A DNA stretch of 64,000 nt. It comes from Candidatus Hadarchaeota archaeon. GTDB taxonomy: Archaea; Hadarchaeota; Hadarchaeia; Hadarchaeales; JAGGTB01. The notes under the pieces were generated by a model that was not told where the DNA came from, ran no database searches, and was given only the letters and a program-made list of their open reading frames with translations. This document shows positions 22,556 to 63,859 of the stretch, piece after piece. How positions within the stretch are numbered: position 1 is the stretch's first letter; each line of letters starts with the position of its first letter. The position numbers were made by a program, and so were the translations under genes. The DNA is taken from assembly GCA_964384105.1 (NCBI GenBank), contig CAYLJV010000001.1, forward strand, positions 448,001 to 512,000. Direction: 5' to 3'.

Positions 22556-22562
22556 TTAATCT

Positions 22563-23649: not shown

Positions 23650-23703
23650 CCTTATTGTGATTCTCCTTTGTGAACCTTTTAATTTTCTTATTGAGATTGT
23701 GAA

Positions 23704-24429: not shown

Positions 24430-24433
24430 TTTA

Positions 24434-24925
24434 TCAGAACCATCCTAGTAAGATTGCCATCCCCAGGGCGATCAGTATCGCAAATATGAAGCTGAGGATG
24501 TTTCTAACGAGAGTGAATTTTTTACCGAAATGCTCAATTTCTACCGGGGACGTTGCGAACCCGACCATGGTAAGAGTTGTAATGAACCCTGCGGCCACTA
24601 CTAGGTAAGCTCCTTGACTCATCAGGTCGGCAGCCATGGGGATCGCCACAAATTTTGGCAGGATTAGTAACGTTCCAATACCTGCGCCGTACAAAGTAGC
24701 TAGGAAAGCGTTACCTGTGCCTAGTAATGATTGAATGGCGCCGTCGGGGATGAGAGCGAAAAACAGAGCCACCAGCAGGAGGAGGCCAAAAATTTCCCCT
24801 CCTATTTTTATGGCCATTCCTTTTGCAACGTTTAGACTCTCCTTTGTCTTTTCCTTGCTCTTGATGACGGACCATCCCAGCAGAACCAAAGCTGCAGGAA
24901 CCATAATTAGAACGATAATATTCAT
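24434..24925 (-). CDS. Permease (DUF318/ArsP-like half), cassette 2
   Basis: FITTLTMVG, EIEHFGKKFTLVRN; paralog of 20827-21309. The ATG at 24925 overlaps the TetR stop (TAATG). Confidence 0.8.
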   Translation of the reverse strand: MNIIVLIMVPAALVLLGWSVIKSKEKTKESLNVAKGMAIKIGGEIFGLLLLVALFFALIPDGAIQSLLGTGNAFLATLYGAGIGTLLILPKFVAIPMAADLMSQGAYLVVAAGFITTLTMVGFATSPVEIEHFGKKFTLVRNILSFIFAILIALGMAILLGWF

Positions 24926-25542
24926 TATTGATCGCTCCCCTTTCCCACGAGTTTTTTGAACTGCATCCAAAGTTCGTCCATCTGTCCTTCGAGAGATTTC
25001 TCGCCTCCGCTAAGAGACCAAAAAAGTATCTGTGCTTGTATCATCCCGAAGTAAAAACTGAAAGAAGAATCCGGCTTGATGTCTTCCCTTATCTGGTTTT
25101 TCTCGATTCCCTTTCTGAGAAGGCTTTTGATGAGGTCCTTATATTTGTTGATGATGTTGAGAAGTTCTTTTTGAAGGCTCTCTTCATTGAAATGTACTTC
25201 GTCGGAGAATAAGAGACGCGTGATTCCGGGATTGTTTTGTATGAATCTCATATGGGTTTTAAATACCCTTCTTATTTTCTCTAGGTTGTCGTCAGTTTCG
25301 GCTTCTTCAGCTGAAGCGGATAGTGATTCAATTAGTTCTTTTCCGGCAGCTCGAATCGTTGCCGTGATAACATCCTTCTTGGTGGAGAAATGCTTGTAGA
25401 GGGCAGCTTCTGAGAAGCCGACTCGCTCTGCGATCTCGGATGTTCTTAGGAGTCCTATTCCTTTTTCACCGACTAATTCCAGAGTTGCCTCTATGATTTC
25501 TTTCTTGCGTTCGCTTTTGCTTTTTCGTGTAATCTCAAACAC
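24925..25542 (-). CDS. TetR/AcrR-family regulator
   Basis: LRTSEIAERVGFSEAALYKHFSTKKDV. Confidence 0.92.
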   Translation of the reverse strand: MFEITRKSKSERKKEIIEATLELVGEKGIGLLRTSEIAERVGFSEAALYKHFSTKKDVITATIRAAGKELIESLSASAEEAETDDNLEKIRRVFKTHMRFIQNNPGITRLLFSDEVHFNEESLQKELLNIINKYKDLIKSLLRKGIEKNQIREDIKPDSSFSFYFGMIQAQILFWSLSGGEKSLEGQMDELWMQFKKLVGKGSDQ

Positions 25543-26117: not shown

Positions 26118-28802
26118 TTGAGAGGAGAACAGAGAATGGGTGAAAAATGGCACACTAAGCCATTTAAGGAGATCTTACAGGAGCTAGGTAGTTCAAAGAA
26201 GGGGTTAAACGAAGATGAAGCGGAACAAAGGCTGAAAGAATTTGGAAAAAATGAAATTGAGAGAGGCGAAGAGGCCTCGGTTCTCAAAATATTCACGGAT
26301 CAGTTCAAGGATTTTCTAATACTAATTCTCATTGTGGCAGCTGCTATTTCTTTTCTCATAGGGCACCGAATTGATGGAGCTTTGATAGTAAGCATTGTGA
26401 TCGCAAACGGGGTTTTTGGATTCGCACAAGATTGGAAAGCAGAAAAATCCATTCAGGCTCTCAGGGATATGGCTTCCCCAGCAGCCCTCGTCCTGAGGGA
26501 CGGTGAAAAAACTGAAATCGATTCTAAGGAGATTGTTCCAGGAGATATTATAATTCTCGCTCAGGGGTCTTCAATCCCGGCCGATGCGAGGTTGATAGAA
26601 GAGCAACATCTGGAGGTCGACGAGTCGCCTCTTACTGGAGAAAGTGTGGCGGTGGACAAAAATACTGGAGTTCTTGATGGTGACGTTCCGTTGGCGGAAA
26701 GGAAGAACATGGTCTACAAGGAAACTAATGTTGTCAAGGGGAGGGGAAAAGCCGTCGTCGTTGAGACGGGAATGGACACGGAGATTGGTAAGATAGCCAC
26801 CCAACTTGAAATGGTAGAGGAGGAAGAGACAGTCTTTCAGAGGGAGATAAATGCTCTAGGAAAAAAACTAGGAATTATCATCCTTGTTGTATGTGCCGTT
26901 TTGATTCCAGTTCTGATTTGGCAGGGGCTTAGCCTTATGACGTCTTTTCTTACAGGAGTAGCGCTTGCGGTTGGGGCAGTCCCCGAAGGCCTTCCGGCAG
27001 TTGTAACTCTCACCCTTGCGTTAGGGACGAAAAAGATGGTTGGTAAGAATGCTCTGGTGAGAAGACTTCCAGTTATTGAGACTCTCGGTTCAGTGGACGT
27101 CATTTGTACTGACAAGACAGGAACTCTCACGGAAAACAAAATGGTGGTGCAGAATATATACGCTGGTGGTCGTGATGTAGAGGTTTCGGGCGGGTTCTCT
27201 GATGAAGGGAAGTTCGAAGAAGATGGTCATGAGGTGAATTTCGATGAACTTGAGTTGATTCTCAAAGCGGGTGCGCTTTGCAATGATTCCGAAATCCAGG
27301 AGGATGGGGATGTTCTGGGAGACCCTACAGAGATCGCTCTGATTCAAGTGGCAAGAAAGGCTGGAATGACTCGAGAAAATCTTCAGAAGGAATATCCTCG
27401 AATTGATGAGATTCCATTTTCTTCCAAAAGAAAGAGAATGACGACTATTCATGAAGATTCCGGAAGGAGGATAGCTTACGTCAAGGGTGCCACCGAAGTG
27501 ATTTTGGATAAGTGTGATCGGTATGTGGATGATGGGAAGATAAAGAATCTCAGTGAGGAAAAAAAGAATGAATTTCTGAAGAAGAACGACGAATATGCAC
27601 GGAATGCTCTGCGCGTGTTAGGCTTTGCTTTTAGAAAGTTAGAGAATGAAACAAAAAAGGACGATGCCATCGAATCCAATCTGATTTTTATAGGGTTGCA
27701 GGGAATGATGGACCCGCCTCGCGAAGAGGTAAAGGAAGCTATAGAGACCTGTAGAAAAGCTGGGATAAGAACGGTAATGGTAACGGGAGATAACGCCGTA
27801 ACCGCGAAGGCAATTGGAGAAAAACTCGGTTTTGAGGGAGGGGTTGTTACCGGAAGTGAGATGGGAAATATGTCGGAGGAAGAACTGGCAGATCGGATAG
27901 AGGAAATAGAGATTTTCGCCAGGACTTCACCGAGCGATAAGGTCAAGATTTTGAACGCTCTGAGGGATAACGGTCATATAGTCGCCATGACTGGCGATGG
28001 AGTGAACGATGCACCTTCCCTGAAGAGTGCTGATGTGGGAGCTTCGATGGGGATGAGAGGTACTGATGTCGCAAAACAGGCCTCGGACATTATTCTGCTT
28101 GATGATAATTACAGGACCATTAAGGAGGCAATTGCGGAAGGAAGGGGTGTTTTCGACAATATTCGCAAGTTCGTGAATCTTCTGATTTCTAGCAATGCCG
28201 GAGAGGTTATGATGGTCTTTGTAGCAGCGATACTGTTCTCACCCGGACGACCGCCTCTGACACCGGCTATGCTCCTCTGGGTCAACCTGCTTACTGATGG
28301 TCTACCTGCACTCGCCTTGGGCGTTGATTCAAAGTCCGCAGATATAATGAAGAGGCCTCCGAAGAAGAAGGGAGAAAGTATTATAGACGAGAAGATAGGT
28401 TTCTCAATTTTTTGGATGGGGGTCACGGTTATGATAGTAATGGTCCTTCTATACGGACAATATGTTGGACAGTCTACTGAAAAAGCTATGACGATGGCTT
28501 TGACTTCCTTCGTCTTTATGAAGTTTGGCGCTATAATTCCGATTAGATCTAGATATGGGACACCAGCTATTTCGAATAAATGGTTGGGTCTCGCGGTGCT
28601 GTCTTCAATCCTTGCGCATTTGGCGCTTCTTTACTCACCTCTGAATCGGCTCTTTGCGGTCGTTCCGATTGGGTTAGATAGTTGGCTCTTGATCATGATG
28701 ATTACAGCCGGATTCTTCGCCTTTTCTTGGCTTATGATAAAAAATGAAGATAAATCTCTAAGATGGATGAAGAAAATCCGAAATCGAATATTCTCTCATT
28801 AA
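26118..28802 (+). CDS. P-type cation-transporting ATPase, Ca2+-type IIA-like (likely start ATG 26136)
   Basis: TGES, PEGLP, DKTGTLT, KGA, TGDN, TGDGVNDAP, NLLTDG. Confidence 0.95.
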   Translation: MRGEQRMGEKWHTKPFKEILQELGSSKKGLNEDEAEQRLKEFGKNEIERGEEASVLKIFTDQFKDFLILILIVAAAISFLIGHRIDGALIVSIVIANGVFGFAQDWKAEKSIQALRDMASPAALVLRDGEKTEIDSKEIVPGDIIILAQGSSIPADARLIEEQHLEVDESPLTGESVAVDKNTGVLDGDVPLAERKNMVYKETNVVKGRGKAVVVETGMDTEIGKIATQLEMVEEEETVFQREINALGKKLGIIILVVCAVLIPVLIWQGLSLMTSFLTGVALAVGAVPEGLPAVVTLTLALGTKKMVGKNALVRRLPVIETLGSVDVICTDKTGTLTENKMVVQNIYAGGRDVEVSGGFSDEGKFEEDGHEVNFDELELILKAGALCNDSEIQEDGDVLGDPTEIALIQVARKAGMTRENLQKEYPRIDEIPFSSKRKRMTTIHEDSGRRIAYVKGATEVILDKCDRYVDDGKIKNLSEEKKNEFLKKNDEYARNALRVLGFAFRKLENETKKDDAIESNLIFIGLQGMMDPPREEVKEAIETCRKAGIRTVMVTGDNAVTAKAIGEKLGFEGGVVTGSEMGNMSEEELADRIEEIEIFARTSPSDKVKILNALRDNGHIVAMTGDGVNDAPSLKSADVGASMGMRGTDVAKQASDIILLDDNYRTIKEAIAEGRGVFDNIRKFVNLLISSNAGEVMMVFVAAILFSPGRPPLTPAMLLWVNLLTDGLPALALGVDSKSADIMKRPPKKKGESIIDEKIGFSIFWMGVTVMIVMVLLYGQYVGQSTEKAMTMALTSFVFMKFGAIIPIRSRYGTPAISNKWLGLAVLSSILAHLALLYSPLNRLFAVVPIGLDSWLLIMMITAGFFAFSWLMIKNEDKSLRWMKKIRNRIFSH

Positions 28803-50742: not shown

Positions 50743-51498
50743 TTGAATTCTGATTTTTCCTTTTTAAGAAAATTTAATGCTTTTATGGGTTTTCTACACC
50801 TTTTTCAGGCTATTTTAATGTTAATCCTCAGTAATGATTTTTCTCTCACGATAACGAATACTTATCCGGGGGGACCGCCGGGAAGTGGGGAAATAATTAC
50901 GGAAAGTATTGGTAGTTTAAGAATAGGTCCATTAGTAGCAGTTTTTCTACTTATTTCTGCAGTTTGTCACTTTTTGCTCGCAACAATTCTCTACGATTGG
51001 TACGTCAGAAACTTAAAGAGAAACATCAATCATCTTCGTTGGATTGAATATTCCTTCAGCAGTTCGATTATGATTGTTATTATCGCTATGTTTGTTGGAT
51101 TTTTTGATATCAGCGTTCTCCTATTGATCTTCATCTTGAACGCTTCTATGATATTTTTTGGATGGTTGATGGAACTTTATAATCAGAGAACTGAGGAAAC
51201 TAAGTGGTCTCCGTTCATTTTTGGTTGCATTGCTGGTGCGGCTCCATGGGTTGCAATTGCCATTCGTCTTATAACGGCTGTTTGGAGTTCTCCAGTAGAC
51301 GTTCCAGGTTTTGTAATAGGAATTTTTGTCTCCATAGCCATTTTCTTTAATATATTCGCCTTGAATCAGTTACTTCAGTACAAGAAAGTAGGTCGTTGGA
51401 GGAATTACATATTCGGCGAAAAAATGTATATCGTTCTTAGCCTTGTAGCAAAATCAGCATTGGCTTGGCAGATTTTCTCTGGAACCCTGATAGATTAA
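50743..51498 (+). CDS. Heliorhodopsin
   Basis: LHLFQ, GGPPG loop, VCHF, RWIEYSFSSS counter-ion helix, GWLME, LSLVAKSALAWQ retinal-binding lysine. Confidence 0.95.
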   Translation: MNSDFSFLRKFNAFMGFLHLFQAILMLILSNDFSLTITNTYPGGPPGSGEIITESIGSLRIGPLVAVFLLISAVCHFLLATILYDWYVRNLKRNINHLRWIEYSFSSSIMIVIIAMFVGFFDISVLLLIFILNASMIFFGWLMELYNQRTEETKWSPFIFGCIAGAAPWVAIAIRLITAVWSSPVDVPGFVIGIFVSIAIFFNIFALNQLLQYKKVGRWRNYIFGEKMYIVLSLVAKSALAWQIFSGTLID

Positions 51499-51939
51499 GT
51501 CAATGTCTATTTCGGCGATTGATAAAAGACGAATTACTAACGTATCTTGATAAGAGTTATTCTTAGTGCAATAAATTTAGTATGGGGATTTCTATCCCAA
51601 GTACCAAATCCCGATAGTGAACTCTCAATCGAGATTGAAAAATTCAAAATTGACACAAGAATCTCAATCTTGATATTCTTTCATTCAGTATGGAGGAGAG
51701 CGGCTTAGTTCTTCTAGAAGAATTAAAAATACCCCGAATCAAACCAAAGTCAGATTCTTCACTTTTAAGAAGTATAATTGACGAAATAGTAAGAGCAAGA
51801 GGTTGTGGTACCTGTATGAAAAAGGAAGAATCTCTACTTTATAAAAGGCTTTTTAGAAAAGAATAAATACGATCTCCATCAAGTTTGTTTGAATGATTTC
51901 ACACTTGATACTATTTTTCATAAACAAAGGATTTGAAGG

Positions 51940-53457
51940 TTGAAAATTTTGGCTAAGTCGCTTATGGGTAAAAAACCGAAAGTAGCCTTCTTTGATTTTG
52001 CAGGTTGTGAAGGAGATCAGTTACAGATAGCAAATCTTGAAGAAAAAATACTGAATCTGTTGGATCTTGTGGAAATAGTAAGTTTCAGAGAGGTTATGAC
52101 TGAACACTCAAACGACTATGATATCGCATTTGTTGAAGGTTCCATAACGAGACCAATGGATGAAGAGCGATTAAAAACTATAAGAGCAGAGGCTAAGAAG
52201 CTTATTGCTTTGGGAGATTGTGCCTGTAATGGTGGTGTAAACAAGTTACGGAATGATTGGTCGGTAGAGGATGTGGAAGAGGAGGTTTATCAGGGATCGG
52301 AGGATGTGATAAAAGACAACGAATTCTTCAACGCATATCCAACTAAGGCAGTTGATGAGATTGTGGATGTGGACTATTACATACGGGGATGTCCGGTTGA
52401 AGGAGAACAGGTGTTTTATTTCATAAAAAGACTGGTCTCTATGCCTTTAGAATCTAACAAAGATGTTTATTTTGACATTACGTTAAAAAATATAGATGTA
52501 GACGAACGTTCTCTGGTCAGTTACAATCCCAACAAGTGCATTCTATGCCGACGATGTGCCAATATTTGCCAAGACGTTTTGGGTGTTGATGCATTAGGCC
52601 CGGTCGATAGAGGGTGGACTACCATTATTTCGACCCCTGAAAACATAGGCTTTGATGCTAATGGTTGCATACAGTGTGGTCAGTGTATTTCTGTTTGTCC
52701 AGTCAATGCGCTTTACACAAAGTCACCTGTAGAGGGTTTGATTGAAGAGCTGAAAAATAGTGAACTTTCTATTGCTGTGGATTCCGTTGCGCTAGCATCT
52801 TTTGTTCAGAATCACCGGCTACTCAGTGATCTAGATCCAAGTCTCGCAGAGAAATATGTTGTAGCAGGTCTTAGGAAAATAGGATTTCGTAGAGTACTTC
52901 AGTATGATAATTATCTCCATAAGTCTCGAGAGGAGGATGAGAAGGCCGATAGTGCGATTCTTGCTAGCTGGTGTCTCCCTGCTCGAAATTATTTTGATGT
53001 TAGTAGTACCAGTGTTCTACGTTCGTATGAGGAAAACTCTCCTTGGAATTTGCTTATAGGTGAGGAGGGCGAAGGAGTCTGCTTGTTGAGTCCGTGTATA
53101 GGTCTCAAGGAGATTGAGCGATTAGGACCTGTGATTACTTCTCCGGAATTGGAAGAACTTTTCAATAAGATGGAATTAGATTTGGGGTTTTTGGATCCAG
53201 AGAATGGCGAGTATGACGGAGAGGTTGTTGACGAAGGTTTCGAACATCCAGGTGTTCCATCTAAAAAGGATACATTCAATATCACTGATGATTTGAAAAA
53301 TGAATTAGCTGAATCAGATCTTTCTGAGGGCCCAATTGGTGTTTTTCCATGTCTTAAGGGATGTGTGAGTGGTGGCGGTAATTATCCCACCGTCGATGAA
53401 TCCGATATACAGGAAAGAGTTGATTGGATTAATAATTTGAGGGGGGTTAATTTATGA
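51940..53457 (+). CDS. Fusion of a [NiFe]-hydrogenase small-subunit N-domain, a 2x[4Fe-4S] domain and a reduced [FeFe] H-cluster-like domain (likely start ATG 51964)
   Basis: GCEGD, VEGSI, GDCACNGG, RGCP; CILCRRCANIC, CIQCGQCISVCP; ASWCLPA, SPCIGLK, VITSPEL, PCLKGCVSGGGNYP. Confidence 0.85.
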   Translation: MKILAKSLMGKKPKVAFFDFAGCEGDQLQIANLEEKILNLLDLVEIVSFREVMTEHSNDYDIAFVEGSITRPMDEERLKTIRAEAKKLIALGDCACNGGVNKLRNDWSVEDVEEEVYQGSEDVIKDNEFFNAYPTKAVDEIVDVDYYIRGCPVEGEQVFYFIKRLVSMPLESNKDVYFDITLKNIDVDERSLVSYNPNKCILCRRCANICQDVLGVDALGPVDRGWTTIISTPENIGFDANGCIQCGQCISVCPVNALYTKSPVEGLIEELKNSELSIAVDSVALASFVQNHRLLSDLDPSLAEKYVVAGLRKIGFRRVLQYDNYLHKSREEDEKADSAILASWCLPARNYFDVSSTSVLRSYEENSPWNLLIGEEGEGVCLLSPCIGLKEIERLGPVITSPELEELFNKMELDLGFLDPENGEYDGEVVDEGFEHPGVPSKKDTFNITDDLKNELAESDLSEGPIGVFPCLKGCVSGGGNYPTVDESDIQERVDWINNLRGVNL

Positions 53458-53939
53458 TGGAGAGCAAGGTTGAAGAGTTGTCTTGGGAAGAGAAAAGGAA
53501 ACTAGAGAAGATAATAGACTCTGTTGATAATCCTGAATATCAGAAAATAGAGCTTCTTCAAAAGACTCAAGAGGAGTATGGATGGTTGAAAGGTGAACAC
53601 ATGAAGTATATCGCTGAATGTATTGATACCAGTTATACAGATCTTTTTGGTATTGCGACCTTCTATTCTCAATTTACTCTTCATCCGCCAGGTCGTCACA
53701 AGATATCTGTCTGCATGGGGACCAGTTGTCATGTGAAAGGGGGCGAAGAGCTGATGGAAGAGTTACAGGAAATATTGAATATAGGAGTTGGCGAAACAAC
53801 GGACGACAAACGATTCTCTCTTAATCAGGTTAGATGTTTAGGTTGTTGTGGTCTTGCTCCGGTGATTGATATAGATGGTAAGATATTCAGTAGGGTTAGA
53901 CCCGCTCAAATAGAAGATATTCTGGAAGAATTTGAATAG
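53454..53939 (+). CDS. HydC/NuoE-like [2Fe-2S] subunit
   Basis: ATFYSQF, VCMGTSCHVKG, RCLGCCGLAP. Confidence 0.93.
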   Translation: MMESKVEELSWEEKRKLEKIIDSVDNPEYQKIELLQKTQEEYGWLKGEHMKYIAECIDTSYTDLFGIATFYSQFTLHPPGRHKISVCMGTSCHVKGGEELMEELQEILNIGVGETTDDKRFSLNQVRCLGCCGLAPVIDIDGKIFSRVRPAQIEDILEEFE

Positions 53940-53947
53940 GTGATAAG

Positions 53948-56900
53948 ATGGTTATAGAAAAAATAGAAGATTTGGAAGAGATGGCCAAGATAGGCAAAAG
54001 AGAATTGGAATCCTATAATCCTAAGATAATATTTGGACATTCTACGTGCGGTATAGCTGCTGGTGCAGACGAGTTGATTGATTTTACAAAAGAATATTTA
54101 CGCAAAAATAATATCAAAGAAAAAATTGGGGAAAGAGGTCAGCCAGATATCGTTTCAGTAGGCTGTATAGGGATGTGTCATGCTGAACCACTTGTTGATA
54201 TTAAGATGCCAAAAAAGCCCAGAGTCACTTACTATAATGTTGATAAAAATAAATTGGAGCGCATATTAAACGAGCACTTGATCAATGACCGTCCAGTTGA
54301 AGAGTATGTACTGGGTCAACTCTCAAAAGAATTATCCGTTTGTGAACACGGGAGAGTTGATTACTCGTGGCAGTACGAACGCATACCCTCTTTAGATGAA
54401 CTTCCATTTTTATCCAAGCAAGTCAGAGTAGTTCTCAGAAATTGTGGTATTATAAATCCCGAATCTATTGGACAGTATGTTGCCAGAGGTGGTTACAGGT
54501 CCGCTTTAAAGGTTCTCAGTAAATACCATCCGCAGGGGGTCATAGAGGAGGTAAAAGAAGCAAATCTAAGAGGGCGGGGTGGAGCTGGTTTCCCGACTGG
54601 TTTAAAGTGGGAATTTGTGAGAAAGGCCGATGGAGAGCCAAAGTATTTAATTTGTAATGCCGATGAGGGGGATCCAGGCGCGTATATGGATCGTTCAGTT
54701 TTGGAGGGTGATCCACACAGCGTTATAGAGGGTATGATAATTGGTGCATACGCTATGGGTGCCTCTGTTGGTTATATTTACGTGAGAGCTGAATATCCGC
54801 TAGCCATTAAAAGATTGAAAAATGCTATAGAACAGGCGAAAGAGTACAACCTTCTCGGCGAGAATATTATGGGTAGCGATTTTTCTTTTGAGCTGAAAAT
54901 AATGAAGGGTGCTGGTGCTTTTGTTTGCGGTGAAGAGACTGCGCTTATCGCTTCTATAGAGGGTAAGAGAGGGGAACCACGTACTAAACCACCTTTCCCT
55001 GCGAATTCCGGTTTGTTTGGTAAGCCAACTAATGTGAACAATGTTGAGACGTGGGCGAACGTTCCTATGATTTTCGAGAAAGGTGCTGATTGGTTTAAAA
55101 GTATTGGTACAGAGAAGAGCAAGGGTACAAAGGTCTTTTCTCTTGTGGGAAACGTAGAACGTTCTGGGTTAGTTGAGATACCGATGGGAACCAAATTGAA
55201 AGAGATAATATACGAAATTGGAGGGAACATGGAAAATAACAGGAGGTTTAAAGCCGTGCAAACTGGTGGGCCTTCAGGCGGATGTATACCTGTAGATCAT
55301 CTCGATGTTGAAGTTGATTATGAGAACTTGAAAAAACTCGGATCTATTGTCGGTTCCGGCGGAATGGTTGCTATGGATGAAGACACATGTATGGTCGATG
55401 TTGCCAGATACTTTTTGGATTTTTGTGTAGGAGAATCCTGTGGACAGTGTGTTCCCTGTAGAATAGGAACCAGACGAATGCTCGAGATTCTGGACCGTAT
55501 AACTAGAGGTGAAGGAGATATAAAGGACATTGATATTTTGGAACATCTCGCGGTTCAAGTTAGAGATGGTTCACTTTGTGCCCTTGGTGGGACTGCTCCC
55601 AACCCAGTCCTAACTACTCTCAAATATTTCAGAAATGAGTATGAACAACATATTGAGGGAAAAGAGTGCCCTGCATCTTCCTGTGCCACCTTATTCCTTT
55701 CTCCCTGTCAAGACACGTGCCCAGCTGGTACGAATGTGCCTGGTCAAATGCAACTAGTTGTAGAAGGACGAATTGGAGAAGCTTATGAGCTACAGCGGGA
55801 GGATAATCCATTCCCTGGAGTTTCTGGTAGAGTATGTGATCACCCTTGTGAGGACCGGTGTCAACGGAGTCAACTTGATCGAGCGGTTTCGGTTATGGCT
55901 CAACATAGATTCGTCGCAGACCAGGTTTATTCTGGGGAGGTAGAGGATAGACCAGAGACCACAAGACTCGATCCAACAGGCAGAAGTATTGGAATTATTG
56001 GAGGGGGACCGGCAGGTCTTACAGCTGCTTATTTCCTGAAGAGACTGGGCCATGATGTTACAATATATGAAGGCCGTCCTGAACTTGGTGGCATGCTTAG
56101 GTGGGGGATCCCTGAGTACAGACTTCCTAGAGATATATTGGACTGGGAGATTCAGCAGATAATAGATCTTGGCGTTAATGTAAAACTTGACACTTCTGTT
56201 GGAAAAGACATATCATTTAATGAGGTACTGGATACGCATGATTCGATTTTCCTAGGTATTGGGGCTCATAAAGATATCTCGCTTGGATTAGAAAACAGCG
56301 ATGTGCTTGGGATACTGGAGGGGATGAAACTTTTAGAGAAGGTAAACAAGGGCGAGGAAGTAGAACTAGGTAACACAGTTCTGATAATTGGTGGGGGGAA
56401 CGTTTCAGTTGATATGGCAAGAACAGCACGGAGGTTAGGTTGTGAGAGAGTTATAGTCGCATATAGGCGGGAAGAGGTCGACATGCCGGCTTACCCTGAA
56501 GAAGTCGAGGAGGCTAAAAGGGAAGGTGTTGATTTCAAATTCCTCCTGTCTCCTGAAGAGATTATAGTTGAAGGTGGGAAGGCTGCAGGAATGGTATTTA
56601 CTAAGACTGAGATGGGTGAATATACCAAGGAAGGGCGTCGAAAACCGATGCCTTTAGAATATGAGAAAACCGTTTTGATGGCTGACACCATCATAACTGC
56701 TATCGGTCAGGAGATAGACAAAAGTTTTGCAGAAGATTTAGTTGATGAACTAACTGATGAGGAAAATAGACTTTTAGAGGTTGATTCCCTCACAATGAAG
56801 ACAAATCATCCAAAAATATTCGCGGGTGGGGATGCAGTTTTAGGTCCCTCAACAGTAATTGAAGCAGTCTCTCATGGTAAAAAAGCTGCTAAGGAAATAG

Positions 56901-57136
56901 ATGCTGAACTAATGGGTGAAGATAGGATGGAAGAACTGAGGAGTATTAATGACTATGATTATTCCATGGAAGAACGTGATAATGAGCAGTATATCCCCAG
57001 AGCGGAATTACAATCGCTCTCTGTTGAGGAGAGAAAAGATAATTTCAAAGAGGTTATTAAGTGTATGGATAGAGAAACTGCTGTGGGGGAGGCAGAACGC
57101 TGCCTAAGGTGTGATATAGGGAAGGGAGGAAAATAA
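53948..57136 (+). CDS. HydB/NuoF-like FMN/NAD(H) subunit fused to a GltD/NfnB-like FAD oxidoreductase
   Basis: GRGGAGFPTGLKW, NADEGDPG, CGEETAL, CGQCVPC; then PCQDTCP, GRVCDHPCEDRC, GGGPAG, GGGNV, YRR, FAGGD, RCLRC. Confidence 0.92.
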   Translation: MVIEKIEDLEEMAKIGKRELESYNPKIIFGHSTCGIAAGADELIDFTKEYLRKNNIKEKIGERGQPDIVSVGCIGMCHAEPLVDIKMPKKPRVTYYNVDKNKLERILNEHLINDRPVEEYVLGQLSKELSVCEHGRVDYSWQYERIPSLDELPFLSKQVRVVLRNCGIINPESIGQYVARGGYRSALKVLSKYHPQGVIEEVKEANLRGRGGAGFPTGLKWEFVRKADGEPKYLICNADEGDPGAYMDRSVLEGDPHSVIEGMIIGAYAMGASVGYIYVRAEYPLAIKRLKNAIEQAKEYNLLGENIMGSDFSFELKIMKGAGAFVCGEETALIASIEGKRGEPRTKPPFPANSGLFGKPTNVNNVETWANVPMIFEKGADWFKSIGTEKSKGTKVFSLVGNVERSGLVEIPMGTKLKEIIYEIGGNMENNRRFKAVQTGGPSGGCIPVDHLDVEVDYENLKKLGSIVGSGGMVAMDEDTCMVDVARYFLDFCVGESCGQCVPCRIGTRRMLEILDRITRGEGDIKDIDILEHLAVQVRDGSLCALGGTAPNPVLTTLKYFRNEYEQHIEGKECPASSCATLFLSPCQDTCPAGTNVPGQMQLVVEGRIGEAYELQREDNPFPGVSGRVCDHPCEDRCQRSQLDRAVSVMAQHRFVADQVYSGEVEDRPETTRLDPTGRSIGIIGGGPAGLTAAYFLKRLGHDVTIYEGRPELGGMLRWGIPEYRLPRDILDWEIQQIIDLGVNVKLDTSVGKDISFNEVLDTHDSIFLGIGAHKDISLGLENSDVLGILEGMKLLEKVNKGEEVELGNTVLIIGGGNVSVDMARTARRLGCERVIVAYRREEVDMPAYPEEVEEAKREGVDFKFLLSPEEIIVEGGKAAGMVFTKTEMGEYTKEGRRKPMPLEYEKTVLMADTIITAIGQEIDKSFAEDLVDELTDEENRLLEVDSLTMKTNHPKIFAGGDAVLGPSTVIEAVSHGKKAAKEIDAELMGEDRMEELRSINDYDYSMEERDNEQYIPRAELQSLSVEERKDNFKEVIKCMDRETAVGEAERCLRCDIGKGGK

Positions 57137-57804
57137 TGGAAATAATCATAGATGGTGAACAGTATGAATGCCAGCCGGGTCAGAAAGTTTATGATGTGGC
57201 TGAAGAGAATGGTATTCATATTCCCACTCTCTGCTATAATCATTTGATTCCTGAGATAAGACCAGGTGCATGTAGAATTTGTGTTGTAGAGGTTGTTAAT
57301 AATGGTAAAGAAACGCAACTTGAGTCTAGTTGCACTTTGCCAGTCTCTGAAGGTCTAGAAGTTTCAACAAATAGTCAGGCTGTATACGATGAGAGGAGAC
57401 AGGACCTTGAACTGATGCTTTCTGAACATGAACAGGATTGTCGAAATTGTGTCAAGAGTGGAAATTGTAACTTTGCCGAGCTATGCTTGGAATATGATAT
57501 AGATGGAGTATCTATATGTGCAGAGTGTCCTAAGCAAGAGAGTGGATGTTTTCTTTCCAGGGGGGTGCTTTGCCTCGGTCCGATAACCCATGCAGGTTGC
57601 GATGCTTTCTGTCTGAGGAAGGACGAACCATGCGAGGGGTGTTTCAGCTTGCTTAGCGATGAGAGTGTACTAAAATTCGGTATTGAAGCCTTAAAGGAGA
57701 CGGGATTTGATAAGGATGAAGTACTTGAGGCTGTGAAGATTTTTTCTTTTGATGGGTTAAAACGGTTAGAAATGTTAATGGAAAAAGAGGGATGGAATGA
57801 GTAA
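57136..57804 (+). CDS. Fusion of a HydA/NuoG N-terminal [2Fe-2S] + His-ligated [4Fe-4S] domain with a [NiFe] small-subunit C-terminal cluster domain
   Basis: IPTLC...GACRICVVE...SC, HEQDCRNCVKSGNC; then CAEC...GCFL...CLGPITHAGC...C...PCEGC. Confidence 0.87.
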   Translation: MEIIIDGEQYECQPGQKVYDVAEENGIHIPTLCYNHLIPEIRPGACRICVVEVVNNGKETQLESSCTLPVSEGLEVSTNSQAVYDERRQDLELMLSEHEQDCRNCVKSGNCNFAELCLEYDIDGVSICAECPKQESGCFLSRGVLCLGPITHAGCDAFCLRKDEPCEGCFSLLSDESVLKFGIEALKETGFDKDEVLEAVKIFSFDGLKRLEMLMEKEGWNE

Positions 57805-59104
57805 AATTGATATAAATGTGGAACTTTTGACTCGAGTTGAGGGACACGGTAACATAGTAGTTAATGCAGAGGAGGGCAAGATTAAGGAACTTTCGTGGAA
57901 AGTTGAAGAAGCCCCGCGATATTTTGAGGCTTTAGTTAAAGGTAAACCACATCACCAGTTAGCTCAGATTACTTCGAGAATTTGCGGAATTTGTTCCATG
58001 GCTCATCAATTAACTTCTTTGAAAGCTACAGAAAACGCGATGAATATCGAAGTATCTGAACGCGATGAACTTCTTAGAAGGCTTGCACTTCACGGTGAAT
58101 TTATTCAAAGCCATGTTCTCCACTGTGGTTATTTGGCTTTGCCGGATTTACTTGAAGTTGGATCAGTTATACCTTTAGCTTCTTCAAATCCAGATGAACT
58201 TAAAAATGTCATTAGGGTGCATAGAGTGGGTAATGAACTTTCTGACTTAGTCGGAGGTAGAAATACGCATCAACGAAGGCTTGTCCTAGGTGGACTTTCA
58301 AAACTGCCTTCACCACTAGAACTTAGGACATTAAAAAGTAAATTAGCTGATTCTTTAAAGGATTTAGAGAAATTGGTATCGTTCTTGAAGGGAGTGGTGT
58401 CCCAGTTACCTGATTTTAGACGCGAGACTGAATTTATATCTTTGAATCATGAAAAAAGATATCCACTCTACGATGGTAACATAGTTTCATCTGATACAGG
58501 TACTGCTCCGGTTGAGAAGTATTTGTCGATAACTAATGAGTATGTGGTTCCACAATCAACAGCTAAATACACTAAGCACAATCGGGAATCTTATATGACT
58601 GGAGCTCTAGCGAGATTTAATAATAATTATGATCATCTTGGGTCAGAGGCTAAGGAAGTTGCAGAAGAGTTTGGATTGGAACCAATATGTCATAGACCTT
58701 TCATGAACAATATTGCTCAGGTAGTAGAAACTGTACACTGTACTGTAGACGCAATAAAAATTATCGATGAATTGTTAGACAAAGGACTGGACTCTCAGGG
58801 TGAATATTGTCAACCTCACGTAGACGTAAAATCAGGAAGAGGAGTTGGAGCAGTTGAAGCTCCACGAGGTATTCTCTTCCACGACTATACTTACAATAAG
58901 AAGGGAGTGTGTACTAAAGCGAATTGTATTATTCCTACTAATCAGAATCATGGAAACATTCAGAGAGATTTAGAAAAAATGGTGCCAGAAATGATGGATG
59001 AGCCAGAGGAAAAAATAGAACATTCTTTAGAAATGTTGGTGAGAGCCTATGATCCATGTATTTCTTGTTCTACACATTATCTAGACGTAGATTTCGTTGA
59101 TTAA
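57797..59104 (+). CDS. [NiFe]-hydrogenase large subunit, group 3b-like
   Basis: TRVEGHG, L1 SRICGIC, EAPRG, L2 DPCISCSTH with a cleavable C-terminal tail. Confidence 0.95.
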   Translation: MSKIDINVELLTRVEGHGNIVVNAEEGKIKELSWKVEEAPRYFEALVKGKPHHQLAQITSRICGICSMAHQLTSLKATENAMNIEVSERDELLRRLALHGEFIQSHVLHCGYLALPDLLEVGSVIPLASSNPDELKNVIRVHRVGNELSDLVGGRNTHQRRLVLGGLSKLPSPLELRTLKSKLADSLKDLEKLVSFLKGVVSQLPDFRRETEFISLNHEKRYPLYDGNIVSSDTGTAPVEKYLSITNEYVVPQSTAKYTKHNRESYMTGALARFNNNYDHLGSEAKEVAEEFGLEPICHRPFMNNIAQVVETVHCTVDAIKIIDELLDKGLDSQGEYCQPHVDVKSGRGVGAVEAPRGILFHDYTYNKKGVCTKANCIIPTNQNHGNIQRDLEKMVPEMMDEPEEKIEHSLEMLVRAYDPCISCSTHYLDVDFVD

Positions 59105-59161
59105 CTGCTTTTTGTTCGATCAATTCATGAAGATCTTTGAGAATACAGATTTAACTTTACG

Positions 59162-59623
59162 ATGAAGGCAATTATAGGTTTGGGAAATCCAATTAGGGCT
59201 GATGATGGAATAGGCATACGCTTAATTAAAGAAATTAGGAAAAAGGATCTCCCTCCCGATGTGGAAGTTTTCGACTCTGGCAACCGGGTAATGAGATTAT
59301 TACATCTTTTAAACGATTTAGAAATAGCCGTTATAGTAGATGCAGTCCATTTTGGTGGAAATCCAGGAGATTTTGTTTTCTTTTCGCCGGAAGAAGTAAA
59401 GTCTCTGAACACATCTAAAAATACCCATGATACCAATATTCTGGAGGTTCTTGAACTATCCAAAACTCTGAATAAAGAATCAAAAGAGATAATAATAATG
59501 GGGATTGAACCGAAAGATACGTCTTTTGAGGAAGGTATTTCGCAAGAACTTAAAGATCGCCTGCCTGAGATGATAGATGAATTATTAAAGAAAATAATGG
59601 TTATGGGATCGGATGGAAAATGA
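59162..59623 (+). CDS. Hydrogenase maturation protease
   Basis: GLGNPIRADDGIG, IVDAV, NTHD, GIEP. Confidence 0.94.
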   Translation: MKAIIGLGNPIRADDGIGIRLIKEIRKKDLPPDVEVFDSGNRVMRLLHLLNDLEIAVIVDAVHFGGNPGDFVFFSPEEVKSLNTSKNTHDTNILEVLELSKTLNKESKEIIIMGIEPKDTSFEEGISQELKDRLPEMIDELLKKIMVMGSDGK

Positions 59624-59760: not shown

Positions 59761-61023
59761 GTGGATAATATGTCTGGAAAAAGTAAGAACAAGTATCAAT
59801 ATAAAAAGCTTCTTGAGAAATTGGAAGGAATAGAGGGTAGAGGTACTGAACTTGTAACGGTTTACATAACTCCGGGTTATGATCTCAATCAGGTGGTTCA
59901 GCAGTTGAGGGAGGAGGAGGGCACTGCCCAGAACATAAAGTCGAAAAATACGAGAAAAAACGTAGTTTCCGCATTACGTCGAATTATAAATTTTCTACAG
60001 AAGTATTCTGAAAAACATGGTAATGGGGCCCCGGAGCATGGAATGGCTATTTTTAGCGGTAATGTTTCGGGCGAGGAGGGAAAATCTGATATTAAATTGT
60101 ACTGGGTTGAACCTCCAGAGCCAATAGAATCTAGAATATATAGATGTGATCAAAATTTCCTGCTTGAACCCTTAAGTAAAGCCATGGAATCAAAGGAAAA
60201 AGTTGGATTAATTGTAGTTGATTCCAAGGATGCAACAATAGCGACTTTGAAAGGTAAAAATCTTAACATAGCTCGTAGGATGACCTCAGGAGTTTGGGGA
60301 AAGCATAGCAAGGGAGGACAATCCTCTCAGAGATTCGAAAGACTTAGGGAAAAAGCTCTCGATGAATTTTTGAAAAGAGCGGCAGCTTCTGCTAATCGTG
60401 AGTTTTATGATGATCCTGAGTTAAATGCTGTTCTTGTTGGAGGGCCTGGTCCTACAAAGGAGCGTTTTGTCAAAGAGGGTTATCTAAAGAATGAGGTTCA
60501 AGAAAAGATAGCTTCTGTTATTGATACGGGTTATTCGGATGAACAAGGTATTAAAGAATTGATGAATCGAGCGGAAGAGATTTTAGAGGGTTTAGAGGTT
60601 TCTAAGGAGAAATCTTTGATAAGAAGGTTTATGTCAGGTGTGGTTTCGAACGAAGGTTTGGTTACTTATGGGGAAGAGGAAGTTCGAAAACATTTAAAGA
60701 ATGGAGCCGTTGAGACTCTTTTGATTTCTGAAAGTCTGGATTTATATAGAGTTAATATTGAATGTGGCTCGTGTGGTGCGAAGTTTAGTGATATAGTTCG
60801 CGATAAGTTAAGTTTGGAACGGAAGTTATCAGAGAAACCGTGTCCGGAATGTGGGCAAACCGAACTCTCGTTAGTAAGTTCTAAAGATATAATTGGCGAG
60901 CTTTGTGATTTGGCTGATAAAACCGGAGCTGAAGTGGAGTTCATATCCGAGGAGACGGAGGAAGGCAAACAGTTTTCTAACGCCTTTAAAGGTATAGGCG
61001 CACTTTTGAGGTATAAGTTCTAG
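59761..61023 (+). CDS. prf1: Peptide chain release factor aRF1
   Basis: GRGTEL, NIKS, YRCD, KGGQSSQRF, GIGALLRY; Zn-ribbon insertion. Confidence 0.96.
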   Translation: MDNMSGKSKNKYQYKKLLEKLEGIEGRGTELVTVYITPGYDLNQVVQQLREEEGTAQNIKSKNTRKNVVSALRRIINFLQKYSEKHGNGAPEHGMAIFSGNVSGEEGKSDIKLYWVEPPEPIESRIYRCDQNFLLEPLSKAMESKEKVGLIVVDSKDATIATLKGKNLNIARRMTSGVWGKHSKGGQSSQRFERLREKALDEFLKRAAASANREFYDDPELNAVLVGGPGPTKERFVKEGYLKNEVQEKIASVIDTGYSDEQGIKELMNRAEEILEGLEVSKEKSLIRRFMSGVVSNEGLVTYGEEEVRKHLKNGAVETLLISESLDLYRVNIECGSCGAKFSDIVRDKLSLERKLSEKPCPECGQTELSLVSSKDIIGELCDLADKTGAEVEFISEETEEGKQFSNAFKGIGALLRYKF

Positions 61024-61162: not shown

Positions 61163-63859
61163 ATGTCGGGCTCGAATGAAAATTTAACTTCAAAGTACAG
61201 CTCGAGGTCTGTCGAGGAAGTTTATGAAGATCTCAATGTTTCGAGAAGGTCTGGTCTGAGTGCAGCCGAAGTTGAAAAACGAAAAAAGAAATATGGTCTT
61301 AATAAGCTTCGAGAAACGAAGCAAGCATCGGCTATTGACATTCTTATTAATCAATTTAAGAGTCTCATAGTTTTGCTTCTTGTTGCCGCCGCTGTCATCT
61401 CTCTTATTTTTGGGGATCTGTTTGAGTCTATAGCTATCATGATAGTATTAGCTGTAAATACGGGCATTGGATTCTTTACTGAGATTAGAGCCGTTCGTTC
61501 CATGGAGGCACTTCGGAAGATGGGTAAGGTAGCTACGAGAGTTCGAAGAGATGGGGAGGTAAAGGAGATACCAGCTGACGAGATAGTACCCGGTGATGTA
61601 GTCCTGCTAAGCGGCGGGGATATTGTTACGGCAGATATTCGAATAGTGGAAGCGTCTAAACTTCAGTGCGATGAGTCTGCATTGACGGGAGAATCCGTTC
61701 CGGTAAGTAAAAATCCTGAAGTTATTGAAGAAGAAGTTTCGATTGCAGAAAGAAAGAATATGGTTTTCAAGGGAACTGCAGTCACTAGAGGAGAGGGGGA
61801 GGGAATAGTCGTTGGTACCGGTATGAATACTGAATTGGGAGAGATATCCACATTGGTTGGTGAAGCTGAGGATGAAAAGACTCCTTTGGAAAAAAAGTTG
61901 GCCAGTCTTGGAAATAAGCTTATATTGGTGACATTGGGGGTAGCAGCCGTCGCTACTATCTCTGGGATATTATCCGGTCGAGAAGTTTTCTTGATGGTGG
62001 AAACGGGGATAGCCTTGGCAGTAGCCGCTATTCCGGAGGGACTTCCAATCGTGGCTACTGTTGCTTTGGCTAGAGGTATGTGGAGAATGGCTAAGAGAAA
62101 TGCTTTGATTAATCAACTTTCTTCTGTAGAAACCCTCGGTGGAACTGGTATCATCTTTACCGATAAGACGGGTACGCTTACGGAAAATAAAATGACCGTC
62201 ACGAAATATGCTTTTGAGTCCGGAGACATAGACTTGGCGGGAGAAGGAGAGAGTCTAGATTCTAAATTCAGCGTGGATGAAAAGCCAATCAGGGTCGAGG
62301 AAAACAGGGTTTTGAAAGAAGCATTAGAGGTGGGGGTACTCTGCAATAATGCGTCTTTACCTAGATCCGAAGATCAAGATGATTCATTTGGGGATCCTCT
62401 TGAAATCAGCCTTTTGGTTGCGGGAAGAAAGGGTGGTATAAAAAGAAAGGAACTTCTCGAAAACCAGCCTGAGGTTCGGGAGGTTGCTTTTGATCCCGAG
62501 GTGAAAATGATGGCCACTTACCATAAGAAAAATAGGGGTTATAGAGTGGCTGTAAAAGGAGCTCCTGAGGTTGTCTTGAAGGCTTCTACTCATATTATGA
62601 CCGAGAGTGGAAAAACTGAGTTGAATGAAACTAATCGAGAAAAATGGTTAGAAAGAAACAAAGAAATGGCCAAAAAAGGACTCCGATTGTTGGCACTTGC
62701 TTCTAAAACTGTTGAATCCAGAGAGGAGGAGCCCTATCAGAATCTTACTTTCATCGGATTGGTCGCTATGTTAGATCCAGCTCGAGCAGATATTAAAGAG
62801 TCTATAGAGCGGGCGCAGCAGGCGGGAATAAGAGTGATAATGGTCACAGGTGATCAGGCTGATACGGCGAAGAATATAGGAATTTCAGTAGGTTTAGCGA
62901 AGGAGGAAGATGAGGTAATTCATGCTGATAATATAAGAAGTTTTCACGAATTATCGGAAGAAGAAAAAGAAATATTTTTGAGATCACCTATTTTTGCGAG
63001 AGTAAGTCCAAAACAAAAATTGGATATTTTGACCGCTCATCAAGAGACGGGTTCAGTAGTTGCGATGACCGGTGATGGAGTGAACGATGCACCGGCCCTC
63101 AAAAAGGCCGATATTGGTATTTCGATGGGTAAGCGAGGGACTCAAGTCGCCCAAGAAGCATCTGATATGGTTCTAAAAGACGATGCCTTTTCCACAATTT
63201 TGTCTGCGATCGAGGAAGGTAGGATAATATTCAACAATATAAAAAAGTTTGTTTTCTATCTGCTTTCCTGCAATATAAGTGAGATTATGGTCATTGCACT
63301 TGGCTCCGTATTGGGATTACCCCTACCACTTCTTCCCTTGCAAATTCTGTTTCTTAATATGGTAAATGATGTTTTTCCTGCTCTCTCTTTAGGTATGGGT
63401 GAGGGTAATCCAAATATAATGAATGAAGGGCCTCGGGATCCTAAAGAACCTGTGCTTACTAAAAATAATTGGTGGGGTATACTTGGATATGGAGCTATCA
63501 TAACAGCTTCAGTTATCATTTCACTGGTAGTGGCGTTAACGGTCTTGGGTCTGACTGGTACTAGGGCTATTACGATCTCATTTTTAACTCTGGCTCTTGC
63601 TCAGTTATGGCATGTCTTCAATATGAGGGGTAGAAACACTTCAGTCCTGTCAAATGAGGTAACTAGAAATAAGTATGTTTTAGGTTCTTTAGTTCTTTGC
63701 GTGGGTCTGATCTTTCTTGCTTTGTATGTTCCAGGGGTTTCTGACGTATTAGACTTAGTTCCTCCGGGTTTAGATGGTTGGGCACTTGTTATTGGATTGA
63801 GTCTGGTGCCTTTCATTATAGGTCAGTTGTTCTTGTCTTTTCCGGATTCTAAAAGGTGA
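61163..63859 (+). CDS. P-type cation-transporting ATPase, Ca2+-type IIA-like
   Basis: TGES, PEGLP, DKTGTLT, KGAPE, TGD, TGDGVNDAP. Confidence 0.95.
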   Translation: MSGSNENLTSKYSSRSVEEVYEDLNVSRRSGLSAAEVEKRKKKYGLNKLRETKQASAIDILINQFKSLIVLLLVAAAVISLIFGDLFESIAIMIVLAVNTGIGFFTEIRAVRSMEALRKMGKVATRVRRDGEVKEIPADEIVPGDVVLLSGGDIVTADIRIVEASKLQCDESALTGESVPVSKNPEVIEEEVSIAERKNMVFKGTAVTRGEGEGIVVGTGMNTELGEISTLVGEAEDEKTPLEKKLASLGNKLILVTLGVAAVATISGILSGREVFLMVETGIALAVAAIPEGLPIVATVALARGMWRMAKRNALINQLSSVETLGGTGIIFTDKTGTLTENKMTVTKYAFESGDIDLAGEGESLDSKFSVDEKPIRVEENRVLKEALEVGVLCNNASLPRSEDQDDSFGDPLEISLLVAGRKGGIKRKELLENQPEVREVAFDPEVKMMATYHKKNRGYRVAVKGAPEVVLKASTHIMTESGKTELNETNREKWLERNKEMAKKGLRLLALASKTVESREEEPYQNLTFIGLVAMLDPARADIKESIERAQQAGIRVIMVTGDQADTAKNIGISVGLAKEEDEVIHADNIRSFHELSEEEKEIFLRSPIFARVSPKQKLDILTAHQETGSVVAMTGDGVNDAPALKKADIGISMGKRGTQVAQEASDMVLKDDAFSTILSAIEEGRIIFNNIKKFVFYLLSCNISEIMVIALGSVLGLPLPLLPLQILFLNMVNDVFPALSLGMGEGNPNIMNEGPRDPKEPVLTKNNWWGILGYGAIITASVIISLVVALTVLGLTGTRAITISFLTLALAQLWHVFNMRGRNTSVLSNEVTRNKYVLGSLVLCVGLIFLALYVPGVSDVLDLVPPGLDGWALVIGLSLVPFIIGQLFLSFPDSKR

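Follow-up and report, generated by a model that had tools for sequence, protein, structure and literature searches.

The window analysed here is a stretch of 64,000 nucleotides (nt) from a Candidatus Hadarchaeota archaeon (contig CAYLJV010000001.1, positions 448,001 to 512,000), and coordinates below are positions within it. From 51940 to 59623 it carries six open reading frames (ORFs), all on the + strand and, in the ORF listing, either overlapping or at most 57 nt apart. We conclude that this operon probably encodes one soluble multi-subunit hydrogenase, a hybrid of the archaeal group F [FeFe] and group 3f [NiFe] type. A preliminary description of the same DNA had proposed a six-gene cluster in this order, with HydC and a HydB-GltD protein lying between two chimeric genes and a group 3b-like large subunit and a protease following them. 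The ORF listing and the Pfam and NCBIfam profiles bear out both the inventory and the order. The features are listed below, with protein lengths in amino acids (aa) and gene 1 residue numbers counted from TTG 51940.

51964 to 53457 (ORF open from TTG 51940, 51940 to 53457), + strand: gene 1, HyhS-N::HydA-like fusion, 505 aa (P0001)
51976 to 52449, + strand: gene 1, [NiFe] small-subunit N-terminal domain, residues ~13-170, proposed proximal-cluster ligands C23, D26, C94 and C151
52006 to 52017, + strand: gene 1, C-E-G-D motif (C23 to D26) instead of the usual C-x-x-C, read directly
52507 to 52725, + strand: gene 1, ferredoxin-like domain with two [4Fe-4S] clusters, the HydA F-cluster domain, residues ~190-262
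52726 to 53454, + strand: gene 1, short H-like domain with the HydA H-domain fold, residues ~263-505
53454 to 53939, + strand: gene 2, HydC/NuoE-like thioredoxin-like [2Fe-2S] subunit (PF01257, E 3e-48; NuoE and HoxE models match)
53948 to 57136, + strand: gene 3, HydB, NuoF-like part plus GltD/NfnL-like module, 1062 aa (P0003)
Gene 3, residues ~26-583: Bfu-type NuoF-like part for flavin mononucleotide (FMN) and NAD(H)
Gene 3, residues 575-1056: GltD/NfnL-like module for flavin adenine dinucleotide (FAD) and NAD(P)H, with a Fer4_20 cluster domain from 575
57136 to 57804, + strand: gene 4, HydD, HydA/NuoG N-half plus small-subunit C-half, 222 aa (P0004)
57136 to 57507, + strand: gene 4, HydA/NuoG N-half, [2Fe-2S] ligands C33, C46, C49 and C66, His-[4Fe-4S] ligands H98, C102, C105 and C111
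57511 to 57786, + strand: gene 4, small-subunit C-half, eight Cys from C128 to C169
57797 to 59104, + strand: gene 5, HyhL, group 3b-like [NiFe] large subunit
59162 to 59623, + strand: gene 6, HycI/HyaD-type maturation endopeptidase (PF01750, E 1e-22; TIGR00072, 120.8 bits against a cut-off of 47.45)

Group 3b enzymes have an unsplit delta small subunit together with sulfhydrogenase-type beta and gamma partners. Gene 5 provides a large subunit of the 3b type. Its closest solved structure is the alpha subunit of Pyrococcus furiosus sulfhydrogenase I (SHI; 9nez_D, E 3e-65), its translation contains both Cys pairs in the motifs RICGICSMAH and DPCISCSTH, and an 8-residue tail extends beyond the C-terminal His. 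Against NCBIfam it scores 260 bits with the ShyA model and 250 bits with the HydA alpha model, both under the equivalog cut-offs. In contrast, an unsplit delta subunit was not found in the operon: genes 1 and 4 each encode a part of the small subunit, and HydB and HydC stand in for the beta and gamma partners.

Two chimeric genes and the division of two parent proteins

The true start of gene 1 is likely ATG 51964, because an identical protein in the database (P0007) is 497 aa long and the homologues start from the Met of the ninth codon. At the N-terminal end, residues 23-164 match Pfam Oxidored_q6 (E 3e-24) and residues 10-167 match positions 3-155 of 261 in the NCBIfam sulfhydrogenase delta model (E 2e-23). 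Fer4-family motifs follow at 193-259, and residues 186-321 match positions 134-267 of 571 in FeFe_hydrog_A6 (E 6e-29). Conservation was assessed in an alignment of 79 fusion proteins, drawn from 85 fusion-type rows and leaving out a duplicate of the window protein, four fragments and two kinase-fused proteins. Here C200, C203, C206, C210, C243, C246, C249 and C253 are invariant, and so are the Cys residues proposed to hold the proximal cluster (C94 and C151 in 79 of 79 proteins, C23 in 75 of 75). The H-like domain contains S343-W344-C345, C386, C471 and C475-x-x-GGG.

A sequence search of solved structures reached HydA only over residues 175-321, with a weak further match at the last Cys motif, and gene 1 was therefore modelled with AlphaFold2 from the alignment of the 79 fusion proteins. 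The mean predicted local distance difference test score (pLDDT) of the model is 88.1, and the 10-residue blocks from 261 onwards are mostly at 94 or higher, with two at 82-86. Residues 12-176 align on P. furiosus SHI delta (9nez_A) 3-210 with Z 21.6 and a root-mean-square deviation (rmsd) of 1.8 Å over 156 residues. Residues 175-505 of the model align on CpI 118-538 (VIA; Z 31, rmsd 3.0-3.6 Å, 318-326 residues) and on T. kivui HydA (8a6t_A) 121-530 (Z 25.6), and Foldseek returned T. maritima HydA as the top match (E 2.5e-17). Since the model aligns to CpI in this way, the segment 52500-53457, which the preliminary description had singled out for a domain check, takes the HydA fold. Profiles and fold together agree with its account of gene 1 as the N-half of a small subunit joined to the C-half of HydA with two [4Fe-4S] clusters.

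Gene 4 had been described as the N-half of HydA followed by the C-half of the small subunit, and Pfam, NCBIfam and the match to 9nez_A agree with this. Pfam places Fer2_4 at residues 2-80 and NADH-G_4Fe-4S_3 at 87-124. In a fold look-up, residues 1 to ~123 match the N-termini of NuoG, HydA and NfnA (Z 15-17), and in the sequence search of solved structures residues 3-128 match T. kivui HydA (8a6t_A) 6-125. All fold look-up matches lie on the N-half, and the C-half is assigned by sequence comparison: residues 121-217 match positions 161-257 of 261 in the NCBIfam sulfhydrogenase delta model (E 7e-12), and residues 126-217, searched alone, match 9nez_A 162-254 (E 2e-10) with eight of eight Cys aligned. 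Positions 57510-57650, a second segment named for checking, thus belong to the small-subunit C-domain. None of the cluster ligands varies across 72 HydD homologues. This applies to the [2Fe-2S] site with its four Cys, to the neighbouring cluster with its His and three Cys, and to the C-terminal set of eight Cys.

The two chimeras divide their parents in a reciprocal manner. On SHI delta, gene 1 covers 3-148 by sequence and 3-210 by fold, and gene 4 covers 162-254. On T. kivui HydA, gene 4 covers 6-125 and gene 1 covers 121-530. Both parents are cut at complementary points, at ~155-160 in SHI delta and at ~121-125 in HydA. The association of the two proteins was assessed by complex prediction, with each chain given as an alignment and a pass mark that is reached by 116 of 157 solved complexes and by 2 of 215 mismatched pairs. 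Genes 1 and 4 scored an ipSAE of 0.83 in all three runs, and the best of three controls scored 0.00; contact agreement was at least 89% and partner pLDDT at least 86. On the gene 1 side, the predicted interface comprises residues 93-106 and 146-151, near the proximal-cluster ligands, and residues 196-259, 402-410 and 472-490 in the F and H-like domains. On the gene 4 side it involves both halves (32-113 and 120-207). The complementary coverage and the interface score support, in silico, the earlier proposal that the chimeras rebuild both parent proteins in trans.

The proximal cluster had been noted as having CxxD rather than CxxC, and C23-E-G-D26 is indeed what is read in gene 1. The residue 26 column is present in 75 fusion proteins, with Asp in 10 and Cys in 65, and the ten Asp proteins form one clade (FastTree support 98) inside the short class of fusions defined below, which fits a single change. 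The equivalent residue is Cys in the solved MvhG, SHI delta and M. thermolithotrophicus FrhG. In M. marburgensis FrhG, Asp60 ligates the proximal [4Fe-4S] cluster and one Cys is replaced, as described in the sections on this cluster (PMC3591093, PMC3930138). From alignment offsets only, D26 falls at or within one residue of position 60 in 3zfs_B. FrhG is part of an F420-reducing hydrogenase and belongs to a different group (3a). This position tunes the potential of the proximal cluster, and the Asp found there in place of Cys is a naturally occurring variant.

A published hybrid class and its flavin module

The preliminary description held that the class has precedent, and the exact architecture has in fact been published. 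Greening et al. (Cell, 2024; PMC11216029) define group F [FeFe] hydrogenases by the small-subunit/HydA fusion, with members spanning 413-591 aa. Their passages on the hybrids describe five contiguous genes encoding a HydA-HyhS fusion, HydC, HydB with a glutamate-synthase-type domain, HydD and HyhL; these hybrid genes are found in 21 genomes, the names group F and group 3f are proposed, and the complex is modelled for Thermoplasmatota UBA147. HydD is called a NuoG-like conduit with four clusters. Its cofactors in the published model were placed from 7T2R chain A and from the small subunit 5ODC chain E, and the reciprocal swap is therefore implicit in that work. The passages on HydD do not spell out the small-subunit C-half, whereas the split in the window is mapped explicitly here.

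The window shares the defining features of this class. Gene 1 has the same HyhS-N::2x[4Fe-4S]::H-domain fusion, and hydC, hydB, the nuoG-like hydD and hyhL follow it contiguously; the order hydA-hydC-hydB-nuoG-like-hyhL is common to the window, supplement 2 of the paper and two genomes of the same genus. HydB carries a GltA/GltD-type domain, and the large subunit in the paper is likewise typed 3b by HydDB. Gene 1 also clusters with published group F members: P0062 (500 aa, 46% identical to gene 1, E 6e-127 to P0001) is by eye the paper's DAEG01000100.1_3, and P0085 (E 1e-97) is by eye its SR-2_scaffold_141_2318042_5. Differences are seen as well. The proteins for which the paper gives assays and a model are long class (590 and 591 aa), whereas the window protein is short class; the proximal-cluster motif in the window is CxxD and not CxxC; and the large-subunit gene of the window is followed by one for a protease, whereas the large subunits at two loci of the same genus (L034 and L035) are only 386 and 398 aa. 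Thus, the window operon is a further example of the published hybrid class and not a new kind. It contributes a clean operon on a long contig (the genome is 90% complete), a map that makes the reciprocal split explicit, and evidence that the family divides into two classes. We regard the split map, together with the Asp ligand and the H-like domain of the short class, as modest additions. At the level of listings, the literature from 2024 on contained no follow-up on group F hybrids beyond the Cell paper and its citers, and PMC13195033 names the hybrids in its reference list only.

Electrons from a [NiFe] site are expected to leave such a complex through HydB. Pfam and NCBIfam place NuoF at residues 170-573 of gene 3 and the GltD-like part at 575-1056. 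The best solved matches of residues 26-595 are 9bov_B, 9n5u_B (Nfn-ABC) and 8oh5_B (StnABC), at E 1e-205 to 2e-209, and NiFe-HydABCSL of Acetomicrobium mobile (A. mobile; 7t2r_B) is matched at E 3e-202. Residues 585-1056 match the A subunits 9bov_A (102-567) and 9n5u_A (104-508). In the account of Schut et al. (PMC9304861), C438, C476, H525, C531 and C536 of A. mobile are the ligands of the B2 cluster, and the His marks bifurcating B subunits. In the printed alignment with 7t2r_B, four of these five residues are matched in gene 3, with C481, H568, C574 and C579 at C438, H525, C531 and C536. Since HydB is a Bfu-type flavoprotein, the earlier suggestion that a [NiFe] site is wired into a HydABC-like flavin module is reasonable.

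Together, these features point to a path for electrons through the complex. Docking of the gene 1 and gene 4 products would make the small subunit complete again, and likewise a Y-shaped cluster scaffold like that of HydA. H2 would be split or formed at the [NiFe] site, which is the secure catalyst of the complex. Electrons would then pass from the proximal cluster (three Cys and Asp) to the medial and distal clusters on HydD, on to the HydA-type clusters and finally to the FMN of HydB. HydC and the Bfu-type HydB supply the FMN/NAD(H) site, where FMN may exchange electrons with NAD(H), and the GltD-like module may exchange them with NADP(H) and/or ferredoxin.

Several points weigh against a single hybrid complex of this kind, for which the evidence is wholly computational. 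The passing score of genes 1 and 4 may be due to their resemblance to HydA and small-subunit structures that have been solved as single chains; it therefore shows likeness and is not proof of binding. At the fifth B2 position, corresponding to A. mobile C476, gene 3 has T519. Thr is also found there in the Stn and Nfn enzymes, and passages on these enzymes report that the B2-equivalent site with Thr holds Zn (PMC12018979). In addition, the Pfam scan of gene 3 gave no Fer4-type B3/B4 domain, and the GltD-like module stands in its place. According to the same source, Bfu enzymes reduce ferredoxin at the C-terminal ferredoxin-like B3/B4 domain of the B subunit, so bifurcation and the identity of a third substrate are unsupported for the window enzyme. 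The passages of Greening et al. on the hybrid also leave its low-potential partner undetermined (PMC11216029).

The hybrid was also compared with solved enzymes. A. mobile NiFe-HydABCSL (7T2R; PMC8880783) also carries a [NiFe] module on a HydABC scaffold. Its HydB is closely related to gene 3, and its HydS (7t2r_E, 179 aa), which has the proximal cluster only, matches gene 1 residues 12-167. In contrast to the window, its HydA is one chain of 692 aa, with cluster A5 in a C-terminal domain from which the H-cluster motif has been lost, its HydS is free-standing, the medial and distal small-subunit clusters are absent, and its HydB ends in the ferredoxin-like B3/B4 domain and not in a GltD-like module. 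The electron-bifurcating transhydrogenases Nfn-Bfu and StnABC (9N5U, 9BOV, 8OH5; PMC12018979) give the best solved HydB matches and share Thr at the C476 position. As described in the parts of that paper on subunit layout, they differ in carrying the NfnL-like module in the A subunit after the [2Fe-2S] domain, in keeping a ferredoxin-docking domain on the B subunit and in having no hydrogenase module. P. furiosus SHI (group 3b, 9NEZ) has the closest solved large subunit and a delta subunit that genes 1 and 4 cover, but this delta is unsplit. The beta and gamma diaphorase subunits of SHI are not HydBC. The bifurcating [FeFe] HydABC enzymes from T. maritima (7P5H) and T. kivui (8A6T) and CpI share the fold and the cluster layout, whereas the window's HydA-like chain is split near 121-125, reads S-W-C at L1, has K358, M353, M497 and P231 replaced and is missing ~95 residues.

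The short H-like domain and alternative readings

The fusion proteins fall into two classes. In a FastTree tree of the fusions, built without an outgroup or other HydA groups and midpoint-rooted, a branch with support 100 separates 22 long-class proteins (554-591 aa) from 57 short-class proteins (458-529 aa). Gene 1 belongs to the short class, in the same 57-row clade as P0062. Short-class proteins are without ~70-95 residues of the H-domain, and ~95 CpI residues are unpaired in the fold alignment. For the pocket of the domain, the 79 fusions were compared with HydA proteins of group A (29 sequences); the functions of individual CpI residues, such as that of C299 as a proton relay, are those we take them to have. 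The cubane Cys C345, C386, C471 and C475 and the GGG motif are present in all 79 fusions, and P324 and K359 are likewise retained in both classes. At the CpI C299 position, Trp is found in 79 of 79. The short class has further substitutions: P231 to S (53 of 57), K358 to L or M, M353 to S or T, M497 to F or Y, Q509 to N, and Asp at the E279 position (57 of 57). R286, E361 and R364 lack counterparts, and the short class is missing the stretch around F417-R429 and beyond. Gene 1 itself differs from the 29 group A proteins by C299 to W, M353 to S, K358 to L, M497 to F and Q509 to N.

Group A enzymes carry the signatures L1 TSCCPxW, L2 MPCxxKxxE and L3 ExMxCxxGCxxGGGQP. Gene 1 departs from all three, reading ASWCLPA, SPCIGLK and FPCLKGCVSGGGNY. 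Among the group A comparators themselves, L1 is TSCSPGW in 24 of 29 (Ser at the second Cys of CpI), and Cys 321, within S[T/S]CKSPQQ, is invariant, which we have not reconciled with our assumed ligand assignment. The short class, to which gene 1 belongs, has lost most of the canonical surroundings of the H-cluster. The preliminary description had called this part of gene 1 an H-domain. The HydA fold upholds that name, but the description passed over the degeneracy of the domain in the short class.

For a canonical group A enzyme, the maturases HydE, HydF and HydG would be expected in the genome. The genome has 1.62 Mb in 12 contigs and is 90.2% complete. In a profile search of this 90.2% complete genome, no hit reached the cut-off for HydE, HydF or HydG (best scores 49.5, 53.8 and 25 bits against 254.6, 325.55 and 312.15). 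The [NiFe] maturation proteins HypD (490 bits) and HypF (904 bits) are present, along with ~5 [NiFe] large-subunit genes. We therefore lean toward the view that the H-like domain is a cubane-only or non-canonical accessory site and not a standard H-cluster. Relic H-domains holding only a [4Fe-4S] cluster are known from the NiFe-HydA of A. mobile NiFe-HydABCSL (PMC8880783) and, in the passages on Nfn-Bfu, from NfnA (PMC12018979). Pocket-side conservation speaks against such a reduced role. W344, P368, K390 and GGG are strongly conserved, and so are D333, W369 and H436-P437-G438 in the short class, which suggests more than a cubane site. The CpI roles that we assign to W344 and C345 are also partly assumed and do not agree fully with the comparator set. 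It is doubtful, though conceivable, that the domain binds a non-canonical H2-activating cluster without a known maturase, which would give two chemically different H2 sites on one flavin module.

How far these data allow other readings of the locus can be judged from the same evidence. Greening et al. propose two H2-converting sites for group F (PMC11216029), and the short-class H-like domain might accordingly assemble a working H-cluster without HydEFG, placing [NiFe] and [FeFe] sites on one flavin module. The universal cubane Cys and GGG, the HydA fold match and the strongly conserved pocket residues fit such a dual catalyst. Most archaea with active [FeFe] hydrogenases also lack HydEFG. The full set occurs in only 5 of the 130 archaeal genomes of the paper, yet some of the enzymes encoded by the 130 were active when expressed. 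In the activity data of the same paper, the long-class protein Th1 (591 aa) produced H2 after loading with [2Fe]adt, at 5.1% of the C. reinhardtii enzyme. However, Th2 (590 aa) gave only 0.36%, both assayed proteins are long class, HydE, HydF and HydG are all under the cut-off in the window's genome, and the short class is without P231, K358, M353, M497, C299, the canonical proton path and the ~70-95 residues noted above. We consider a dual catalyst possible, though rather unlikely. A regulatory complex, in which the gene 1 protein, alone or together with the [NiFe] module, would respond to H2 or to the redox state, is very unlikely. In two bacterial relatives, P0047 (859 aa) and P0063 (869 aa), the complete fusion is indeed preceded by a receiver and a histidine-kinase ATPase domain. 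Gene 1 also recalls [FeFe] groups C and D, both putatively sensory, in its loss of the proton-relay Cys. But the window operon encodes a full diaphorase module (HydB, HydC and the GltD-like part) without any kinase or regulator, and ~21 kb separate it from the nearest PAS histidine kinase. As in catalytic enzymes, moreover, its large subunit comes with a cleavable tail and a dedicated protease. P0063 is named a response regulator from Planctomycetota, and P0047 and P0063 suggest a sensory use of the HyhS-N/2x[4Fe-4S]/short H-like module.

A further reading is that the operon encodes not one complex but two neighbouring enzymes, one a minimal [NiFe] hydrogenase and the other an oxidoreductase like HydABC. 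Adjacency of genes is indeed no proof of a complex, but nothing specific favours this reading. Neither parent is complete without the other chimera, though, and the only small subunit available to the large subunit consists of the halves on genes 1 and 4; the genes moreover overlap or abut, their order is conserved and the complex prediction passes, which leaves this reading highly improbable. The chimeric junctions could finally be misjoins of the assembly, as the preliminary description had asked to be checked. Seven public sequencing runs from four studies contain parts of the stretch, and one of the seven may be its source; four of the runs were compared. The gene 1 junction (~52432-52510) is bridged by X5 record 25 (52033-52908), and X4 record 17 (52161-52502) also lies across it; the gene 4 junction (~57496-57515) is crossed by X4 record 22 (57061-57762) and X5 record 29 (56891-57572). 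X4 and X5 are runs from two other studies, and no joints or indels appeared in the comparison. With independent contigs bridging both junctions, 79 full-length fusions and 72 HydD proteins known from several sources, misassembly is rejected as having practically no probability.

The single group F/3f hybrid complex therefore stands as the preferred reading of the operon, and what it means depends on the H-like domain. Among known complexes, only the [FeFe]/[NiFe] hybrids physically join the two main superfamilies of hydrogenases, and we know of no native complex of this kind that has been purified. If the domain is cubane-only, the hybrids would work as [NiFe] enzymes on a HydABC scaffold and would resemble an intermediate between FeFe-HydABC and NiFe-HydABCSL. 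If it is active, it would be a very small and unusual H2 catalyst.

Distribution and genomic surroundings

Within the window's taxonomic class (65 species genomes, mostly 0.6-2.2 Mb), full-length fusions were found only in its own genus. Here the short class is represented by the genomes G000 and G052 (63% identity) and the long class by G049, G050 and G053 (33-34% identity). Species of one genus thus carry either a short-class or a long-class fusion, mutually only 33-34% identical. In the remaining 16 genomes with matches the small subunits are of the ordinary kind (252-296 aa), and G000 also has one of this kind, which is 49% identical to gene 1 residues 9-207. The long-class loci L034 and L035 show the same gene order as the window, and at L035 the next ORF of at least 120 aa after the large subunit is on the opposite strand. 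The nearest named homologues are labelled 'Thermoplasmata archaeon'.

Next to the operon, a heliorhodopsin gene (50743-51498; PF18761, E 2e-101) lies ~440 nt upstream, and a 58-codon ORF with a CGTC motif was seen by eye at 51690-51866 (+) between it and gene 1. Downstream, an aRF1 gene, which marks the DNA as archaeal, occupies 59761-61023. The rest of the genome looks anaerobic, with several [NiFe] hydrogenases and a protein of the prismane/carbon monoxide dehydrogenase family; in the window, a 625-aa protein of this family is encoded at 12251-14128 (-). Small Fe-S and membrane genes at 21306-25542 (-), including Fer4_5 and a PF04060 FeS domain, may form an Rnf-like or related cluster. At the start of the window, Cas1 (1865-2848) is followed by a CRISPR array at ~3434-6437 (30-nt repeat, period 66-69). 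Inside the array, two blocks, each made of three repeat-spacer units, occur as duplicates with 100% identity (3567-4007, period 205; 5600-6031, period 201). The window also has two genes for P-type cation ATPases that share one domain set, at 26118-28802 (894 aa) and 61163-63859 (898 aa).

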